From positions 879,118 to 943,117 of the forward strand of contig CP073341.1 of NCBI GenBank assembly GCA_018141785.1: a stretch of DNA of 64,000 nt, written 5' to 3'. Of the stretch, positions 20,439-63,640 are shown piece after piece. Both the position numbers and the translations under genes were made by a program. Positions within the stretch are counted from its first letter, which is position 1. Each line of letters begins with the position of its first letter. Source of the DNA: Candidatus Paraprochloron terpiosi LD05. Lineage in GTDB: Bacteria; Cyanobacteriota; Cyanobacteriia; Cyanobacteriales; Prochloraceae. Below the pieces are notes generated by a model. It worked only from the letters and a program-made list of their open reading frames with translations, was not told the DNA's origin and made no database searches.

Positions 20439-20482
20439 GGTGCACGCTAAATCCCTAAGTCGCACTATAATTGAATTAATAA

Positions 20483-22153
20483 ATGGAAAGTCACCTTCCG
20501 ACTATGGTTTCTCAATTGTCAGCACCAACGAAAGCGGAAATTATCTATCCTGATAACGACAGCAAACCTATGGGGGCGACTCGTTCTGGGCGAAAAGTCG
20601 CGGCTTAATAGCCAAATGACATAACCCCAGGCTAGGTATTTTGTACCTTGACAACTAAATCAGGAATGTTGGTGAGGAGCTGGTCAGCAATCAGTCTTCC
20701 AAGTCCAACCGCTTAGGGGATAAGCGAATCTCTATCTGCCCACACGCAACTGTGAATTCAAGCAGGCGATAGGGGTTAGTCTCCGGGGCGTGAAGCTGGG
20801 AACAGGGCGGAATCAGACACGAAAGTGACCCTGCCTAATGCCGGAGAATCCATGGTCAACAGGTATCCTAGAAATAGGTACGCACTCACCGGAAAAAGCG
20901 TCTAATTTGTAGGAGTACAGCGTTTAGTTTGGGGGGAGACCTCCTTAATGGGCAACAAGAACCGATAACCAAAACCCTGCTGCGTTTTGCATAGGATAGC
21001 AGCATTCCTAGGGGGTCGGTAGGCGAAGTGGTGAGACCTAAAGATTCGGAACAATTTCTGATTTGGAACGAGGAAAAACGAATGGTTCTTTCTAAGCGGG
21101 GTGGTACCCGGAGAGGGAGGGCAGACATACCTCTATCGAGACCATTCGGATAGGACGCGGGAACGAAAGCCACGATGCTAAACAATTGCCCGCAATGTGT
21201 TGGAGCTAATTTCTATCCAAAAAGGTGACGCCTAGGCTGAAAATATGCTGTATACCACCGTGGAGACACGGATGAGAGGATAACCTAGTTCCGAATTTGA
21301 GGTCTGGGTAAGACGACAGCCGAGTAGGAATCATTTTCAAACTCAGGTTCCTGTAAAACCGAGTAAGAACCAGTAAAACTGATGCTGGATAGGACAGGCA
21401 AAGATTGCCACAACCTGACGCACCAAACTAGATAGAGGCAATCAACGGATTTTATGCCCTTTGCGGTAGGTTTCAATCCACAGGTCATAGGAGCCGTGTG
21501 AGGTGAAAGTCTCATGCACGGTTCTGAAAGGGAGCTGGGGTGGGCGACCACTCCTTCGACCCGAACCGAATAACACCATTCAGTTTCGCTGGATTTTAAT
21601 TATTCAGCAGAATTTAGACTGGCTCTTAGCTGAAAATGCTAATGCATTTGTGGCTGGAGACTTATTTTGGTATCCTATTGAGGGAAAGAATACCATAGTC
21701 AATGCCCCGGATGTGATGGTAGTATTAGGGAGACCAAAAGGGGATCGTCTCTCCTATAAACAGTGGGAAGAAGACGAAATCGCTCCCCAAGTGATGTTTG
21801 AAATCCTTTCACCCAGCAATACCGGCAAAGAGATGGCTCAAAAACTGCTCTTTTATGATCGCCAGGTCGTGAGGGAGTACTATATTTACGATCCCCATCG
21901 CAATGAGTTACAAGGCTGGTTGCAAGGAGAGTACGGCTTAGAGGACATTGAGTCTATGGCAGACTGGGTAAGTCCCCTGTTAGGTATTCGCTTCTCCCTA
22001 TCCAAAGAAGAATTACAGATTTATCGACCCGACGACAAAAAGTTTCTCTCCTACATAGAGATTAGTCAGCGAGCAGAGGAAGCCGAACAACAATTAGAAC
22101 AGGAGCGAAAACAGACTAAAACCATGGAGGAGTTGTTAAATCAATACCGCTAG
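20483..22153 (+). CDS. Uma2 family endonuclease gene split by a group II intron (exons 20483-20573 and 21561-22153)
   Basis: Exon 1 ends ...IIYPDNDSKPM. Exon 2 continues EPNNTIQFRWI...EILSPSN. Joining g(20573) to cc(21561-2) gives an Ala codon and the canonical Uma2 PMAE motif. Confidence 0.75.
20574..21560 (+). mobile_element. ORF-less group II intron
   Basis: Domain V (gagccgtgtgaggtgaaagtctcatgcacggttc, 21491-21524) is followed by a domain VI-like helix, and the 3' end is ...cgac. The 5' end is GGGCG rather than GUGCG. CCATGG at 20850-20855 can pair with the last exon bases CTATGG. Confidence 0.75.
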
Positions 22154-22303
22154 CTTGCAGAGAATTACAGTAAATCCTCTCAAGGTGCGGCTCTGTTTCC
22201 TGCTCGGGAGCGGCGTAAGCCAAACATAAGCAGGAACAAGGTTCCCGGGACAGCGTCTCCGATAATCTAAACCACCGAAAGGGGCAGAAAACGGATAAAC
22301 GTT

Positions 22304-22328
22304 CCCCCAGCATCGCGGATGCCGGGGG
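22304..22328. repeat. 25-nt palindromic mini-element, copy 1
   Basis: The sequence is cccccagcatcgcggatgccggggg, giving an 11-bp stem with one mismatch and a GCG loop. It lies inside intron domain I. Confidence 0.8.
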
Positions 22329-22876
22329 TTACCGAACCTTGATAACTGAATAAACTATGAGAGTGAGGACACAGTCAGAAATTGTGCAACCAAGCCTCTC
22401 CCATGAAGGAATCATGTGAATCCTTATCTGGCCACAGTGAGATTAATCATCAGGCTGAAGCTGGCAGCAGGGCGGAACCGGAGCTATCGAGCGGTTCGAT
22501 GGTAACGCCGCTAATAGGGAGAACACCGGGATAACTTACATGAATCATCTACGAAAAGACCTAAGGATTAACACTGCCAAACCGTGTATCGCAGAAAAGA
22601 CACCGAAAGAAACTCGTAAGGGAAAGCTTGAGGCCACTTACATTCCTGAGTTGGTGATAGGTCAATTGATGAGTCCCAAGGGTTCGTAACAATAGTTCAT
22701 TCGGAACGAGTAAAAACTCGCTCAACTTCCATCAAAACAAGGGATTCCAAGCCCTGATATGTGAGATGGTGGGGTCGCCCGATTAACGGCCTACCGGAAG
22801 AGCGAGGGTAAGAGAAGGCGTAACTGCCTGATGGTTTCTACAGAGAAGATACCCAATGTAATTATCAGAGCGACTA

Positions 22877-24629
22877 ATGAAGGTCAAAACTGTGAATATC
22901 ACTAACCAGACTCCAATCGAATACCGCAGTTTAAAAGCCCTGAGACTCCACCTAGCAGCATTCCTGCTAACGGGGAAGATTGGCCGGAGAACTGACGATG
23001 TCTGGAAAAACCTGCCATGGAAGAAATTCCGGCAACATGTATTTCGGTTACAGCGGAGTATCTTCAAAGCGCAAAAAGAACAAGCAAAAGCTAAGGTCAA
23101 ACGTTTACAACGACTCCTACTACAGAGTCGTGCAGCTCAAGCTCTGGCCGTCAAACAAGTAACACAGCTAAACCAAGGGCGTAAGTCCCCCGGAGTTGAT
23201 GGTAAAACAGCGCTTTCTCCCAAGGAGCGTCTAGTGTTGTGCCAAAGGTTGAACAAGCATTGGTACCTCTGGAAACACCAACAACTGAGAAGGGTAAATA
23301 TCCCCAAGCCAAACGGCAAAACAAGGGGATTAGGCATCCCGACAATGGCCGACAGGGCATGGCAAGCATTGCTCAAATTAGCAGCCGAGCCAGCCTACGA
23401 GGCAACTGCCGGAGAAAGGAGCTACGGCTTCAGACCCGGACGCTGTACTGCGGACGCACAAAAGCTCATTTTTAATAACCTAAACAAGAGCAATAATGGC
23501 AAAGATAAGCAGATTCTGGAAACTGATATCAGCAAATGCTTTGACGAGATAAACCACGAGGTAATACTCGAAAAAGTGGTCTTGCCAAAAGAAGCTTTAA
23601 AGGGGTTAAAGAAAGCCGTAAAAGCTGGCGTCCGTGGTGAATATCCCTCCAGTATGAAGGGTACCCCCCAAGGCGGGGTTATCTCACCCCTACTGGCCAA
23701 TATCGCTCTAGATGGATTTGAGAACCTAGGGTCAGACCAATGGAAAAAGAGTCGCCGAAATGGGACTCTCATAAGGGGTATACGTTACGCAGACGATGCG
23801 GTCTTTATCTGTAAACCCGGAGCTGACACCAAGAGGCTACGGGAAGATATCGACGAATTCCTAAAGTTCAGAGGGCTACGAATTAACGAAACTAAGACTA
23901 AGGTGAGTAAAGCTACGGAAGGATTCAATTTCCTGGGGTGGCGCTTCCGTGTCAACTCCCGTGGGCTCTTTAAGTCCACACCGAGCTCCGAGAATTATGC
24001 GAACATCAAGGCCAAGGTAAAGGCCACTTGGAAGAACGGCACACCCACGGAGGCTCGCCTGAAAAGGATAGAGTCACAAGTCCGAGGGTGGAGGCAATAC
24101 CATAAAAACTGCGATATGAGCAAGCACTCGCTATGGTCGCTCAATCACTGGGTATGGCGTAAGCTGAGGGCTGAAAAACGCAGGATGGCAATTAAGGAAG
24201 CAACTCGAGCAAGACGTCTGGCAATCAAGGGTAAACCCCCCGGCATCGCGGATGGCGGGGGCGGCTAAACGCCAGCTCACATCAGAGCAGATTAAGAAAG
24301 CTTTTCCTACAGTTTCCTGGAAAGTCAATAACCACGTGATGGTTAAAGGTGATGCTTCACCCTTCAATGGGAATATTTCCTATTGGGTCGGTCGCAACTC
24401 TAAACTGTATAGTGGCCCAACCGCTAACGCCATTAAACGACAGAAGAATATATGTCCGCATTGCAACCGTAAGTTCATGGAGATAGATGGTGCCGTGGAG
24501 TTGCACCACATTGACGGCAACCATAACAACTGGAAACGTAAGAATTTAGTTGCTCTCCATCGGGAATGTCACCAAGCGCAAGCAATACATCGCAAGCGCA
24601 TTAAGGACGGACTCGTAAAGCGCCGTTAG
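22877..24629 (+). pseudogene. Intron-encoded reverse transcriptase/maturase/HNH protein, frameshifted
   Basis: The RT block with YADD (IRYADDAVFIC) and the X domain are in ORF 22877-24268. The HNH domain (CPHCNRKF..HHIDGNHNNW..LHRECH) is in the +1 ORF 24252-24629. The frames switch at a 25-nt palindrome. Confidence 0.8.
24236..24260. repeat. 25-nt palindromic mini-element, copy 2 (inside the IEP ORF)
   Basis: The sequence is cccccggcatcgcggatggcggggg, flanked by TAAAC on both sides. Its length (25, or 34 with flank) is 1 mod 3, matching the observed +1 frame change. Confidence 0.8.
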
Positions 24630-24778
24630 GAGCACCTGAGCTGTATGAGGTGAAAGTCTCACGTACAGTTCGTAGGAGAGGGGCGAGGCGGCAACGTCTC
24701 CCTCGACTCTAATAATCGCTACCATAGTGGAGTTAGAGTTAATCAGAGCAGTATAACAAAAAGTTATCTAAGAGATAA

Positions 24779-25669
24779 ATGACAACGGAAAACAGCCGTC
24801 TAAGAACCGAATTCTTAAACACACAGGTCATCACTCGTGACACAGGTAAGCGGTTAGGAGTGGTGAAAGAACTGTTGGTGGATGTTGACCAACGGGAAAT
24901 CGTAGTTTTGGGACTCCGGGACAACTTCCTTTCTTTAACCGGAATGGCGAAATATATGTACCGAGACAGGATCGAAAAAAGTGGTGACGTAGTGCTGGTG
25001 GATTCCGAAGATGTGATTGAAGACATCGACGTGGATGTTTACAGCAAACTCATCAATAGTGAAGTTATCACGGAAACCGGGGAACCTTTAGGTCGGATTA
25101 GGGACTTTGTCTTCAACATTGACGATGGGAAGGTTTATTCTCTGATTATAGCTTCCCTGGGTATTCCCCAAATCCCCGAGCAGTTAATCAGTACCTACGA
25201 GTTGCCCATAGAAGAAATAATCAGCAGTGGTCCGAACCGGGTGATTGTTTTTGAGGGTGCGGAAGACAGACTTACCCAGTTAACGGAGGGTATTTTAGAG
25301 CGATTCGGAATCAGCAGACCCGTTTGGGAACGGGAGCAAGAAGACGAATTTGATTCTCTGAATACTGTTCGACCGGAAAATCAATTACCTACAGGTATCC
25401 CCGTGCGCGCTCCCCAAAAGCAACAACCCGTAAAGACTCCTGTCAGACAATGGGAAGAAGAAGAGTGGGAAGAGGAGGTTCCGGCAGCACCCCAAAAGCG
25501 GAAAGTTCTCTACCAGGATTACGAAGATGAGCGATATGAGGACTACCAGGATGAGAATGTGGATCAGGATGCGTGGGATGATGAGGTAAAATCTGAGCCT
25601 TACAAGGGACCACGTATAAGTATTCCCGAGAAGAAAAAAGCTCCTGAGTATGAGGAGGAAACTCGTTAA
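24779..25669 (+). CDS. PRC-barrel domain protein with an acidic C-terminal tail
   Basis: It has two PRC-barrel-like units (VITRDTGKRLGVVKELLVDVDQREIVVLGL and VITETGEPLGRIRDFVFNIDDGKVYSLII) followed by an E/D/W-rich tail. Confidence 0.65.
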   Translation: MTTENSRLRTEFLNTQVITRDTGKRLGVVKELLVDVDQREIVVLGLRDNFLSLTGMAKYMYRDRIEKSGDVVLVDSEDVIEDIDVDVYSKLINSEVITETGEPLGRIRDFVFNIDDGKVYSLIIASLGIPQIPEQLISTYELPIEEIISSGPNRVIVFEGAEDRLTQLTEGILERFGISRPVWEREQEDEFDSLNTVRPENQLPTGIPVRAPQKQQPVKTPVRQWEEEEWEEEVPAAPQKRKVLYQDYEDERYEDYQDENVDQDAWDDEVKSEPYKGPRISIPEKKKAPEYEEETR

Positions 25670-53866: not shown

Positions 53867-54223
53867 TCAAAAGGTAGCGTATTCTGTATACTGTCGTAAT
53901 TCTGAAGGATGAAAGCCAATGACAATTTGGTCTTTGGGTACGCCTCGTTTGACTAAAACTTCAGCGATGTCAATTTCCGTCCCATTCCACTGAATCCAAA
54001 TTTTGCCATCTTGTTTGATGTCTAAATGGAGGACTGGACCAAACACTCGCTTTTCCTTGAACCAACCAATAAAGATGAGTTGGTAGTGGTCTTGTTGGGT
54101 GTCGAAGAGAGTTTGGGCTTCCACGTCATCCCCCACAGAGTTGCGAATATTAGCCCGTTGGGTGAGTAGATCTTTAATATATTGACGGTAATTTTCTCGT
54201 TGACTAGGGGTTAGTTCAGCCAT
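53867..54223 (-). CDS. xisI: XisI (element excision controlling factor)
   Basis: It has the XisI pattern DTQQDHYQLIFIGWFKEKRVFGPVLHLDIKQDGKIWIQWNGTE and overlaps xisH. Confidence 0.85.
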   Translation of the reverse strand: MAELTPSQRENYRQYIKDLLTQRANIRNSVGDDVEAQTLFDTQQDHYQLIFIGWFKEKRVFGPVLHLDIKQDGKIWIQWNGTEIDIAEVLVKRGVPKDQIVIGFHPSELRQYTEYATF

Positions 54224-54627
54224 TGGGTAATGACCTCCTTACTAATATGGTAAACGATGAGTTTAACTTGACTGCGTTGAATTACAGATTGGATGAAAGG
54301 ACGTTGAAAAAAGGTGTCATAGATTTGAGTTGAAATGGAAAGATAAAGGGTGCGATCGGGTTCTTGATCTTCAAGGGCGTAACGATAGTTGATGAATTGA
54401 CCCATTGCGGTATGAAATTGGGAGATAGCAGAAATCCCTAGGAAACTTTTGATTTCTACAGCAATTTTTTCCTCTTTTCGTTCAGCGGCAATGAGGTGTT
54501 CTGCACCAAGGTCAATGTACATTTCTGTGAAGAGGTCTGCCTGGATAGGAAGCGGATCGTGGGTAATCTGCCAGTTTTCTTTCTGGAGAGCAATTTTGAC
54601 AGTTTGATGAAATCGGTCTTTGCTCAT
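54211..54627 (-). CDS. xisH: XisH
   Basis: It has the XisH pattern KDRFHQTVKIALQKENWQITHDPL...DLGAE.LIAAE...KIAVEIKSF. Confidence 0.85.
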   Translation of the reverse strand: MSKDRFHQTVKIALQKENWQITHDPLPIQADLFTEMYIDLGAEHLIAAERKEEKIAVEIKSFLGISAISQFHTAMGQFINYRYALEDQEPDRTLYLSISTQIYDTFFQRPFIQSVIQRSQVKLIVYHISKEVITQWLN

Positions 54628-55032: not shown

Positions 55033-55187
55033 CTCACGAAGTGACCTCCGGCATTGATTAATGGCGGAGGCGCGGTGGCATTTTGAAGTTTAGGGGTTGG
55101 TATCACTAATAAGTGAAAGGCGAGCACTAACTGTAAATCTAACCTAGCTTATTACCAGTCCCAGACTACTTCCCCAAAAAAGCAATA

Positions 55188-62780: not shown

Positions 62781-63263
62781 TTAAATGACTGTGCCCTCAA
62801 GTCCCAGAGTTAGGAAATGTTGAATTTCGGAAGTAAATCTAGAAAAATAAGCAAATCCACGTTTGGCAATATCCAACACGCGCTCTCGGTCTAGTTGATA
62901 GGCATAGATACTTCTGACGACATGACGAAAGCGCCGCAGTTCGTCGAAGAGGAAGCGAGTGTCTTCTGAAATTAGGGCTGGGCGAAGTTGGGGAATCTCT
63001 ACGGTCATTTGTTCTAGCAGTTGGCGATGCCAATTTTGTCCAGTGGGGACAGATCGATCAATTTCCTTGGCTATGGCTTCAAAAATGCGTTCCGCTCCAG
63101 TGTAGAAACTATGCAAGTTCAAGGCGATGGCACTAATGAGGGCAGTTTCAATGGTCGATTCTAGGGGTTTGTCCAGTTGGGTCAAAAATTGCTCGGTTTG
63201 CTTGATGATTTGAATCATTTCTTTGAGTTCTTGTTGGATGCGCTGTTTGAGTTCTGGGTTCAT
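62781..63263 (-). CDS. HEPN-like (HepT-like) protein, partner of the upstream nucleotidyltransferase
   Basis: It is a four-helix-type protein with an RRFRHVVRSIYAY motif near the C-terminus. Its start overlaps the upstream gene by 4 nt. Confidence 0.6.
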   Translation of the reverse strand: MNPELKQRIQQELKEMIQIIKQTEQFLTQLDKPLESTIETALISAIALNLHSFYTGAERIFEAIAKEIDRSVPTGQNWHRQLLEQMTVEIPQLRPALISEDTRFLFDELRRFRHVVRSIYAYQLDRERVLDIAKRGFAYFSRFTSEIQHFLTLGLEGTVI

Positions 63264-63640
63264 AGCTCCACTCCTCGGGCGATGGCATCTCGAATATGGG
63301 GCTTGGTTGATTCTGCTTCGATTAAATCCATGGCGAAATCATGACCCCGTTCAACAGTTGCTCCAGCGCGGTACAGTTCGTTTTTGGGGAGTCCCCATAC
63401 GGCGAGGTCGATGTCGGAGTGCCAAGTCATTTTTTCTGGGGTAAGTAGGGAACCAAACAATACCACCCGATGTACACCGAATTGGGTTTTGAGTTGTTGG
63501 GCGGCAAGGCGTGCCACCTGCCATCCCTGTTGTTGCCGATGGCGCATTTGCTGCACAAATTCTGTGCGTTGGGCGTGGCTCTGTTGCACTCGTTCGATGA
63601 TTTGTTTTTGGGTTTCTAGGGCGATGAGTGGCATTTTCAT
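63260..63640 (-). CDS. mntA: MntA-type minimal nucleotidyltransferase
   Basis: It has the pol-beta NTase motif VVLFGSLL....W.SDIDLAVWG. Confidence 0.8.
   Translation of the reverse strand: MKMPLIALETQKQIIERVQQSHAQRTEFVQQMRHRQQQGWQVARLAAQQLKTQFGVHRVVLFGSLLTPEKMTWHSDIDLAVWGLPKNELYRAGATVERGHDFAMDLIEAESTKPHIRDAIARGVEL

Follow-up and report, generated by a model that had tools for sequence, protein, structure and literature searches.

Analysis of a 64,000-nucleotide stretch of the chromosome of Candidatus Paraprochloron terpiosi LD05 (hereafter the window) has revealed that the second of its two group II introns (22185-24713, + strand, 2529 nt) carries a split gene for its intron-encoded protein (IEP), with a 25-nt hairpin at the break and a near-identical hairpin in domain I. 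The hairpin within the gene rides along in frame inside the linker that joins the maturase (thumb) domain to the DNA-binding/HNH domain, the frame is lost via one extra C, and hairpins of the same family are found at other intron sites. Taken together, we consider it probable that these hairpins constitute an intron-associated family, that the linker copy rides in frame, and that the frameshift is a secondary event brought about by the extra C. An initial annotation of this DNA had proposed instead that a tiny hairpin element invaded the intron twice and, by virtue of its length, shifted the frame of the IEP; this proposal is partly supported, in that the features it described are real and its view of the hairpin as a repeated element of small size can be upheld and extended, but its headline mechanism is refuted.

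The cause of the frameshift became apparent from sibling proteins encoded on the same 3,839,796-bp chromosome. The coding potential of the intron for reverse transcriptase (RT), maturase and HNH regions is split, as annotated initially, into a truncated open reading frame (ORF) of 463 aa (22877-24268, + strand), which comprises RVT_N, RVT_1 with its YADD motif and GIIM/X and is exactly protein P0130, and a C-terminal DNA-binding/HNH part in the +1 frame (24252-24629, + strand), which has its own ATG inside the hairpin copy at 24237-24261 (+ strand, CCCCCGGCATCGCGGATGGCGGGGG; copy 2). This hairpin is preceded by one extra C, giving a run of six (24236-24241, + strand) at a position where the siblings imply five. 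Deletion of one C from this run yields a 583-aa translation identical at 583/583 positions (100%) to P0121, an intact protein encoded, like P0130, on the chromosome, which reads ...RRLAIKGKPPASRMAGAAKRQLTSEQ... with the hairpin in frame (KGK-PPASRMAG-AAKRQ). Three further intact siblings, P0133, P0124 and P0021, also carry the hairpin in frame as PPASRMAG and are ~8-10% different elsewhere. Siblings devoid of the hairpin read KGK-PLG-AAKRQ or KGK-PLVG-AAKRQ, the corresponding DNA being predicted as CCCCTNGGGG, so that the hairpin-bearing version is five codons (15 nt) longer and the frame is kept. Because removal of one C gives P0121 exactly and the siblings read the hairpin in frame, the frameshift is due to one extra C in the homopolymer run of the hairpin, arising by replication slippage or a base-calling error, and not to the length of the insert.

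The mechanism put forward initially, i.e. a mobile hairpin of 25 nt (or 34 nt with one flank) that duplicated TAAAC as its target site, broke the frame by its 1-mod-3 length and inactivated the IEP, has some arithmetic in its favor, as both 25 and 34 are 1 mod 3 and deletion of either restores an ORF of 572-575 aa; in addition, TAAAC is present on both sides of copy 2, though of this copy only, with CGGC sitting between the hairpin and the downstream TAAAC. However, four siblings retain an intact reading frame through the very same hairpin, and comparison with the hairpin-less siblings gives a net difference of five codons, not of 25 or 34 nt. The TAAAC repeats are likewise discounted as a target-site duplication because both belong to the codons of the conserved KGK and AAKRQ, which are found without any hairpin in Prochloron and sponge-metagenome introns. 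On these grounds we view a frame broken by insert length as scarcely credible. For annotation, it follows that the broken intron gene represents a one-base homopolymer change, with an identical intact copy elsewhere in the genome, and is not to be recorded as insertional inactivation.

The element at 22185-24713 displays the features of a group II intron, including a 5' GUGYG (GTGCG), a domain V-VI match and an IEP with RT, maturase (X) and DNA-binding/HNH regions. The GTGCG at 22185 lines up in alignment with the 5' ends of two related introns, L081 and L102, and domains V and VI are recognized by Rfam RF00029 at 24636-24713 (+ strand, 59.5 bits); since this match runs to 24713, we place the 3' end of the intron there and not at 24707 as annotated at first, while the 5' end and the presence of domain V stand. 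The IEP aligns with PDB 6me0_C, the solved Thermosynechococcus maturase, over residues 27-567 (E = 2.7e-86). For the C-terminal part the Pfam HNH match is weak (E = 0.046), and this part carries a CPHC...HH...N...H motif (CxxC type) that aligns with the C-terminus of 6me0_C. A search with the repaired protein uncovered dozens of paralogous intron proteins on the chromosome; the intron is a member of a group II intron family with dozens of copies on this 3.84-Mb cyanobacterial chromosome.

The two hairpins in this intron, copy 1 at 22304-22328 (+ strand, CCCCCAGCATCGCGGATGCCGGGGG) and copy 2, are identical at 23 of 25 bases, in agreement with the near-identical pair noted before. Copy 2 begins at 24237 instead of 24236, and the arms thought to be perfect are not, copy 1 having one A.C and copy 2 one G.G mismatch; the predicted folding energies are -16.3 and -18.1 kcal/mol, respectively. 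The strict 25-mer has no further copies in the window, and such a pair was found in 0 of 100 shuffles. In domain I, the relatives L081, L004 and L102 have a variable arm of ~85-90 nt between the conserved flanks ...GAAAACGGATA and TTACCGAACC..., and at the same position the window intron has just AACGTT followed by the 25-mer, which is predicted to fold independently there. Based on the ~90-nt arm between the same flanks in these relatives, we interpret the domain I hairpin from the sequence comparison as the replacement of a peripheral arm, of which it caps the shortened remainder, and not as a simple insertion into conserved sequence. In the IEP, Pfam limits and the alignment to 6me0_C place the residues encoded by copy 2 in a linker that aligns poorly and shows little conservation, with the thumb/maturase domain on one side and the DNA-binding region on the other, and it is this location that explains why the insertion is tolerated. 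The thumb/DNA-binding linker is thereby marked as a place where the intron protein accepts insertions.

Based on a relaxed pattern, comprising the arms CC.CCG.CAT / ATG.CGG.GG and a loop of 3-4 nt, we identified nine distinct sites, some in the window and the others in cyanobacterial contigs from sponge metagenomes. These two sources contribute at least five intron copies or lineages, and the sites differ in loop orientation and arm variant. Eight of the nine reside inside group II introns, and three of these eight replace the 5' strand of the catalytic domain V. As intron DNA makes up 19% of the 97.8 kb examined in the hairpin-positive sources, this distribution has a binomial P of 1.4e-5, or of 3e-4 when the domain V site is counted once. 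The hairpin is one of a small family of mini-insertions that in this lineage are nearly restricted to group II intron DNA. With respect to the idea of a tiny element that invaded the intron twice, a repeated element that entered introns more than once is borne out, whereas inactivation of the IEP by its insertion is not. The value of these findings would lie in the apparent association with introns and in the seemingly repeated replacement of domain V.

The domain V replacements are located at L103:1737-1762, L107:2251-2276 and L107:6265-6290, the last of these in a second intron lineage. In both lineages the hairpin always occupies the same position, after GAGCC and before TGAAAG, its arms being either CCCCC/GGGGG or CCTCC/GGAGG, and Rfam detects no domain V at any of these three sites. 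Two more copies reside in L105: one at 1175-1199, with the arms of copy 2 and a CGC instead of a GCG loop, in an ORF-less intron nested in the protein gene of another intron, and one at 1455-1482 (equivalent to L103:37-64), with the arms CCCTCCGGCATT and the loop GATT, which makes up the upper part of domain VI in the inner intron. The arrangement in L105 is that of a twintron (L105:669-1490, also seen at L103:1-72), in which an ORF-less group II intron of ~820 nt interrupts the outer IEP gene where the N-terminus is encoded; the inner intron holds both copies. A further copy, at L107:6091-6117, is found in domain I of an ORF-less intron and has tripled arms. Around it (L107:6077-6133), three arm units (CCCCCG x3 ... 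CGGGGG-like x3) make up an imperfect palindrome of ~56 nt, which suggests arm expansion or nested insertion.

The ninth site, and the third in the window (55045-55070, no strand assigned, CCTCCGGCATTGATTAATGGCGGAGG), is the only one without a recognizable intron, and no Rfam match was found near it. It lies in a degraded hicA gene beside a hicB that matches Pfam. At 26/26 bases the hairpin is identical to L105:1456-1481, although the flanks of the two are unrelated. HicA homologues that are intact have 78-84 aa; at this locus just the last ~34-48 codons can be recognized, with the frame broken around the hairpin.

Other searches with the hairpin gave little. The strict 25-mer yielded 18 single matches in metagenome contigs, all of them non-cyanobacterial with 52-70% GC, which we attribute to chance; viral contigs gave no match to it, plasmids only weak Sinorhizobium and Streptomyces matches, and a census of the domain I hairpin via an antisense small ORF found nothing. 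The strict motif was also absent from 80 other cyanobacterial intron loci. A general population of REP-like hairpins in the window was rejected, the other GC-rich hairpins occurring at the level of shuffled sequence.

A trait common to the copies bears on their origin. In eight of nine, one and the same position of the stem is mismatched, as G.G or C.C, the exception being the domain I copy at 22304, where an A.C mismatch is found at the neighboring pair instead. Since local snap-back synthesis would give perfect palindromes, the shared mismatch points to derivation of the copies from a common source by copying. Around this constant feature, the loops are found in both orientations relative to the stem mismatch, and the run lengths of the arms vary (C5/G5, C6/G5, C5/G6 and the tripled arms). 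At several sites resident sequence was replaced, namely the domain I arm in the window intron and the domain V 5' strand once in L103 and twice in L107. IEPs with the hairpin do not have one another as nearest relatives, which fits an exchange of short tracts between intron copies.

Based on these features, we propose how the present arrangement may have come about. The domain I copy caps a truncated peripheral arm, and the linker copy adds five codons in frame between the maturase (thumb) and DNA-binding/HNH domains, an addition that the intact siblings tolerate. The frameshift is secondary, with a hairpin C run of six instead of five, leaving the copy at 22185-24713 to encode only RT and maturase (463 aa), cut off from the DNA-binding/endonuclease part. 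We surmise that the homopolymer arms make the hairpin a hot spot for slippage and that the truncated copy may rely in trans on the intact sibling of identical sequence. Spread among intron copies may proceed via short-patch gene conversion where the flanks are conserved, as in domain V and the linker, with new sites being reached by illegitimate events, rare ones in which the sequence already present is often displaced; a role of the intron RT by template switching is possible.

Several observations weigh against our reading: 1) no target-site duplication, common flank or shared flank is seen at the nine sites; 2) no transposase or RAYT gene is present among the 50 ORFs of the window, whose other genes, psaA, psaB and GUN4 among them, are ordinary for a cyanobacterium; 3) the family is small, with three copies in 64 kb; 4) no family copies were found in ~1 Mb of other cyanobacterial intron loci, nor in two Prochloron loci; 5) the C5 state, the net gain of 15 nt and what the siblings have at the domain I site are deduced from sibling proteins only; and 6) the extra C may be an artefact of assembly or polishing in a multi-copy repeat, in which case the true product of the locus would be the intact protein of 583 aa. 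In line with the first point, a miniature inverted-repeat transposable element was rejected as the nature of the family, given the lack of target-site duplications or shared flanks at the nine sites and the identity of TAAAC as conserved codons.

As to the last point, a single base of a C run is all that separates this copy from a sibling with an intact protein, near-identical, multi-copy repeats are the hardest to polish, and short-read Logan contigs stop at the intron edge. However, among 385 homopolymer runs of at least 5 nt in the window, the C6 run is the only one that splits a gene, two other homopolymer candidates having turned out to be adjacent, distinct genes; the assembly is therefore not generally error-prone, and we rejected widespread homopolymer errors for the window (one gene-splitting run in 385). 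In addition, another frameshift in the same linker, with proteins ending in KGKPLGARLARSHQSR-stop or ...REARSHQSR-stop, defines a second class comprising P0017, P0018, P0019, P0024, P0126, P0128, P0134, P0135, P0139, P0141 and P0146. As the KGKPLGARLARSHQSR-stop ending is common to at least ten diverged siblings, real frameshifts that remove the DNA-binding/HNH part do occur and persist, and intron lineages without this part have apparently multiplied. An artefact at the C run strikes us as unlikely on balance, albeit worth bearing in mind. Directly downstream of the intron, the PRC-barrel gene at 24779-25669 is found exactly on short Logan contigs from SRR14292612 and SRR18788998, and these contigs end at the edge of the intron.

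If the frameshift is real, the break might be used by the cell, either by a +1 ribosomal slip on CCC-CCC-G or by termination-reinitiation at the ATG at 24252 and the TAA at 24266-24268. CCC-C runs are known +1 slippery sites and the run here is of this type; furthermore, the two ORFs overlap, the second one having its ATG 14 nt ahead of the stop codon that ends the first. Usage of this kind would yield an RT-maturase protein together with a full-length or a separate DNA-binding/HNH product. Against it, no Shine-Dalgarno sequence precedes the ATG, and the slippery run is not followed by a rare or stop codon. A programmed frameshift would also be expected to show an out-of-frame arrangement conserved among homologues, but the siblings with the hairpin are simply in frame. 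We consider a functional break of this kind very unlikely.

The hairpins could also be viewed as selected RNA modules of the introns, e.g. stabilizing caps or protein-binding sites, and not as selfish or accidental insertions. This notion would be in keeping with their predicted stability (-12 to -18 kcal/mol), their position at helix tips in domains I and VI, where the fold would be left undisturbed, and the conservation of the internal mismatch. In contrast, three copies destroy the 5' strand of the catalytic domain V, one copy sits in a protein linker and another in a decayed toxin gene, and the close relatives L081, L102 and L004 lack the hairpin at every site. Together, these features make selection for an RNA function improbable in our view.

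Beyond a passive passenger, one may speculate that the hairpin is a hyperparasite or a scar specific to group II introns, i.e. a palindrome of ~25 nt that is copied into intron DNA, where it repeatedly replaces the 5' strand of domain V and disables the intron. Such copying could proceed via the intron RT by template switching, or via repair at intron-induced breaks. We offer this idea tentatively and would not favor it at present. If group II introns are nearly the sole home of a family of 25-nt palindromes, this family would represent an unusual parasite of a parasite, or else a signature of intron decay. One possibility for its birth is inverted duplication from domain V. When the hairpin was compared with L081 and L102 to see whether it might derive by inversion from the domain V 5' strand, CGGATGCGGGG in domain V scored highest, with 14-37 of 200 shuffles scoring equally; the likeness of the hairpin 3' arm to this strand has no statistical support and is a lead only.

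Among known systems, the behavior of the hairpin family appears, by analogy, closest to that of the yeast mitochondrial GC clusters and the Rickettsia palindromic elements. The GC clusters, together with the double-hairpin elements of fungal mitochondria, are small GC-rich palindromes in an AT-richer genome that land in introns and coding sequence; they are sometimes tolerated in frame, as in var1, and sometimes shift intron ORFs out of frame, and their spread probably involves gene conversion. In contrast to the family described here, which is bacterial and has no target duplication, these clusters are organellar, of unrelated sequence and reportedly have characteristic flanking target repeats. 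Rickettsia palindromic elements are palindromic selfish DNA found in frame in protein-coding genes without destroying them; however, they are 100-150 nt long and widespread in genes, whereas the element here is 25 nt and mainly in introns.

Another likeness is to the small dispersed repeats (SDR) of Nostoc punctiforme and its relatives, reportedly described by Elhai et al. in 2008 (Genome Res). These are said to be 21-27 nt long, with some predicted to form hairpins, to lie inside other mobile elements and in variable intron arms, and to have no known transposase; they have reportedly been seen in heterocyst-forming cyanobacteria at high copy number. The repeats are also mentioned in PMC3116915. 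The present family is likewise cyanobacterial and of similar size (25-28 nt) and habit, but it has few copies, is nearly confined to group II introns and comes from a lineage for which Prochloron is the nearest named relative.

Repetitive extragenic palindromes (REP) and the REPINs built from them are also short, GC-rich imperfect palindromes repeated in a genome, and they are mobilized by RAYT transposases; REPs occupy extragenic sites in hundreds of copies, mostly paired as inverted doublets, and have a conserved head of the GTAG type and a neighboring RAYT gene (PMC3116915). The hairpins here share with them the short, GC-rich, imperfectly palindromic and repeated character. Unlike REPs, eight of nine hairpin sites are in introns, one of these within an ORF, with three copies in 64 kb; the hairpins are single, start with a run of Cs and have no solo arms, and no RAYT accompanies them among the window ORFs. 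A different palindrome, with GTAG...CTAC ends (GTAGGGGC...GCCCCTAC) and the head typical of REPs, was observed at L004:18862-18890 (Prochloron) and L103:3874-3901 (sponge metagenome).

Further observations concern the surroundings of these elements. The first group II intron of the window (20440-21566, ~1.1 kb) is ORF-less, with domains V-VI at 21489-21566 (58.8 bits), starts right after the stop codon of an upstream Fe-S/CCG-domain gene and carries no hairpins; as a hairpin-less comparator it was unusable, being too diverged. A Uma2-family gene (putative restriction endonuclease, 21503-22153) lies exactly between the two introns, and tandem Uma2 genes adjoin the related Prochloron intron in L081 (12069-15251). 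The part of the window around the hicB/hicA remnant is rich in small accessory modules, a XisH/XisI pair and a HepT-like/nucleotidyltransferase toxin-antitoxin pair (53867-54627, 62781-63640) being found near it. Lastly, two intron copies truncated at the 5' end are each preceded by one shared sequence (ccgtgctatcctctgcgcctctgtgcctctgt...), at L105:75-110 and L107:1-35, which may represent the terminus of a further repeated element that entered domain I.

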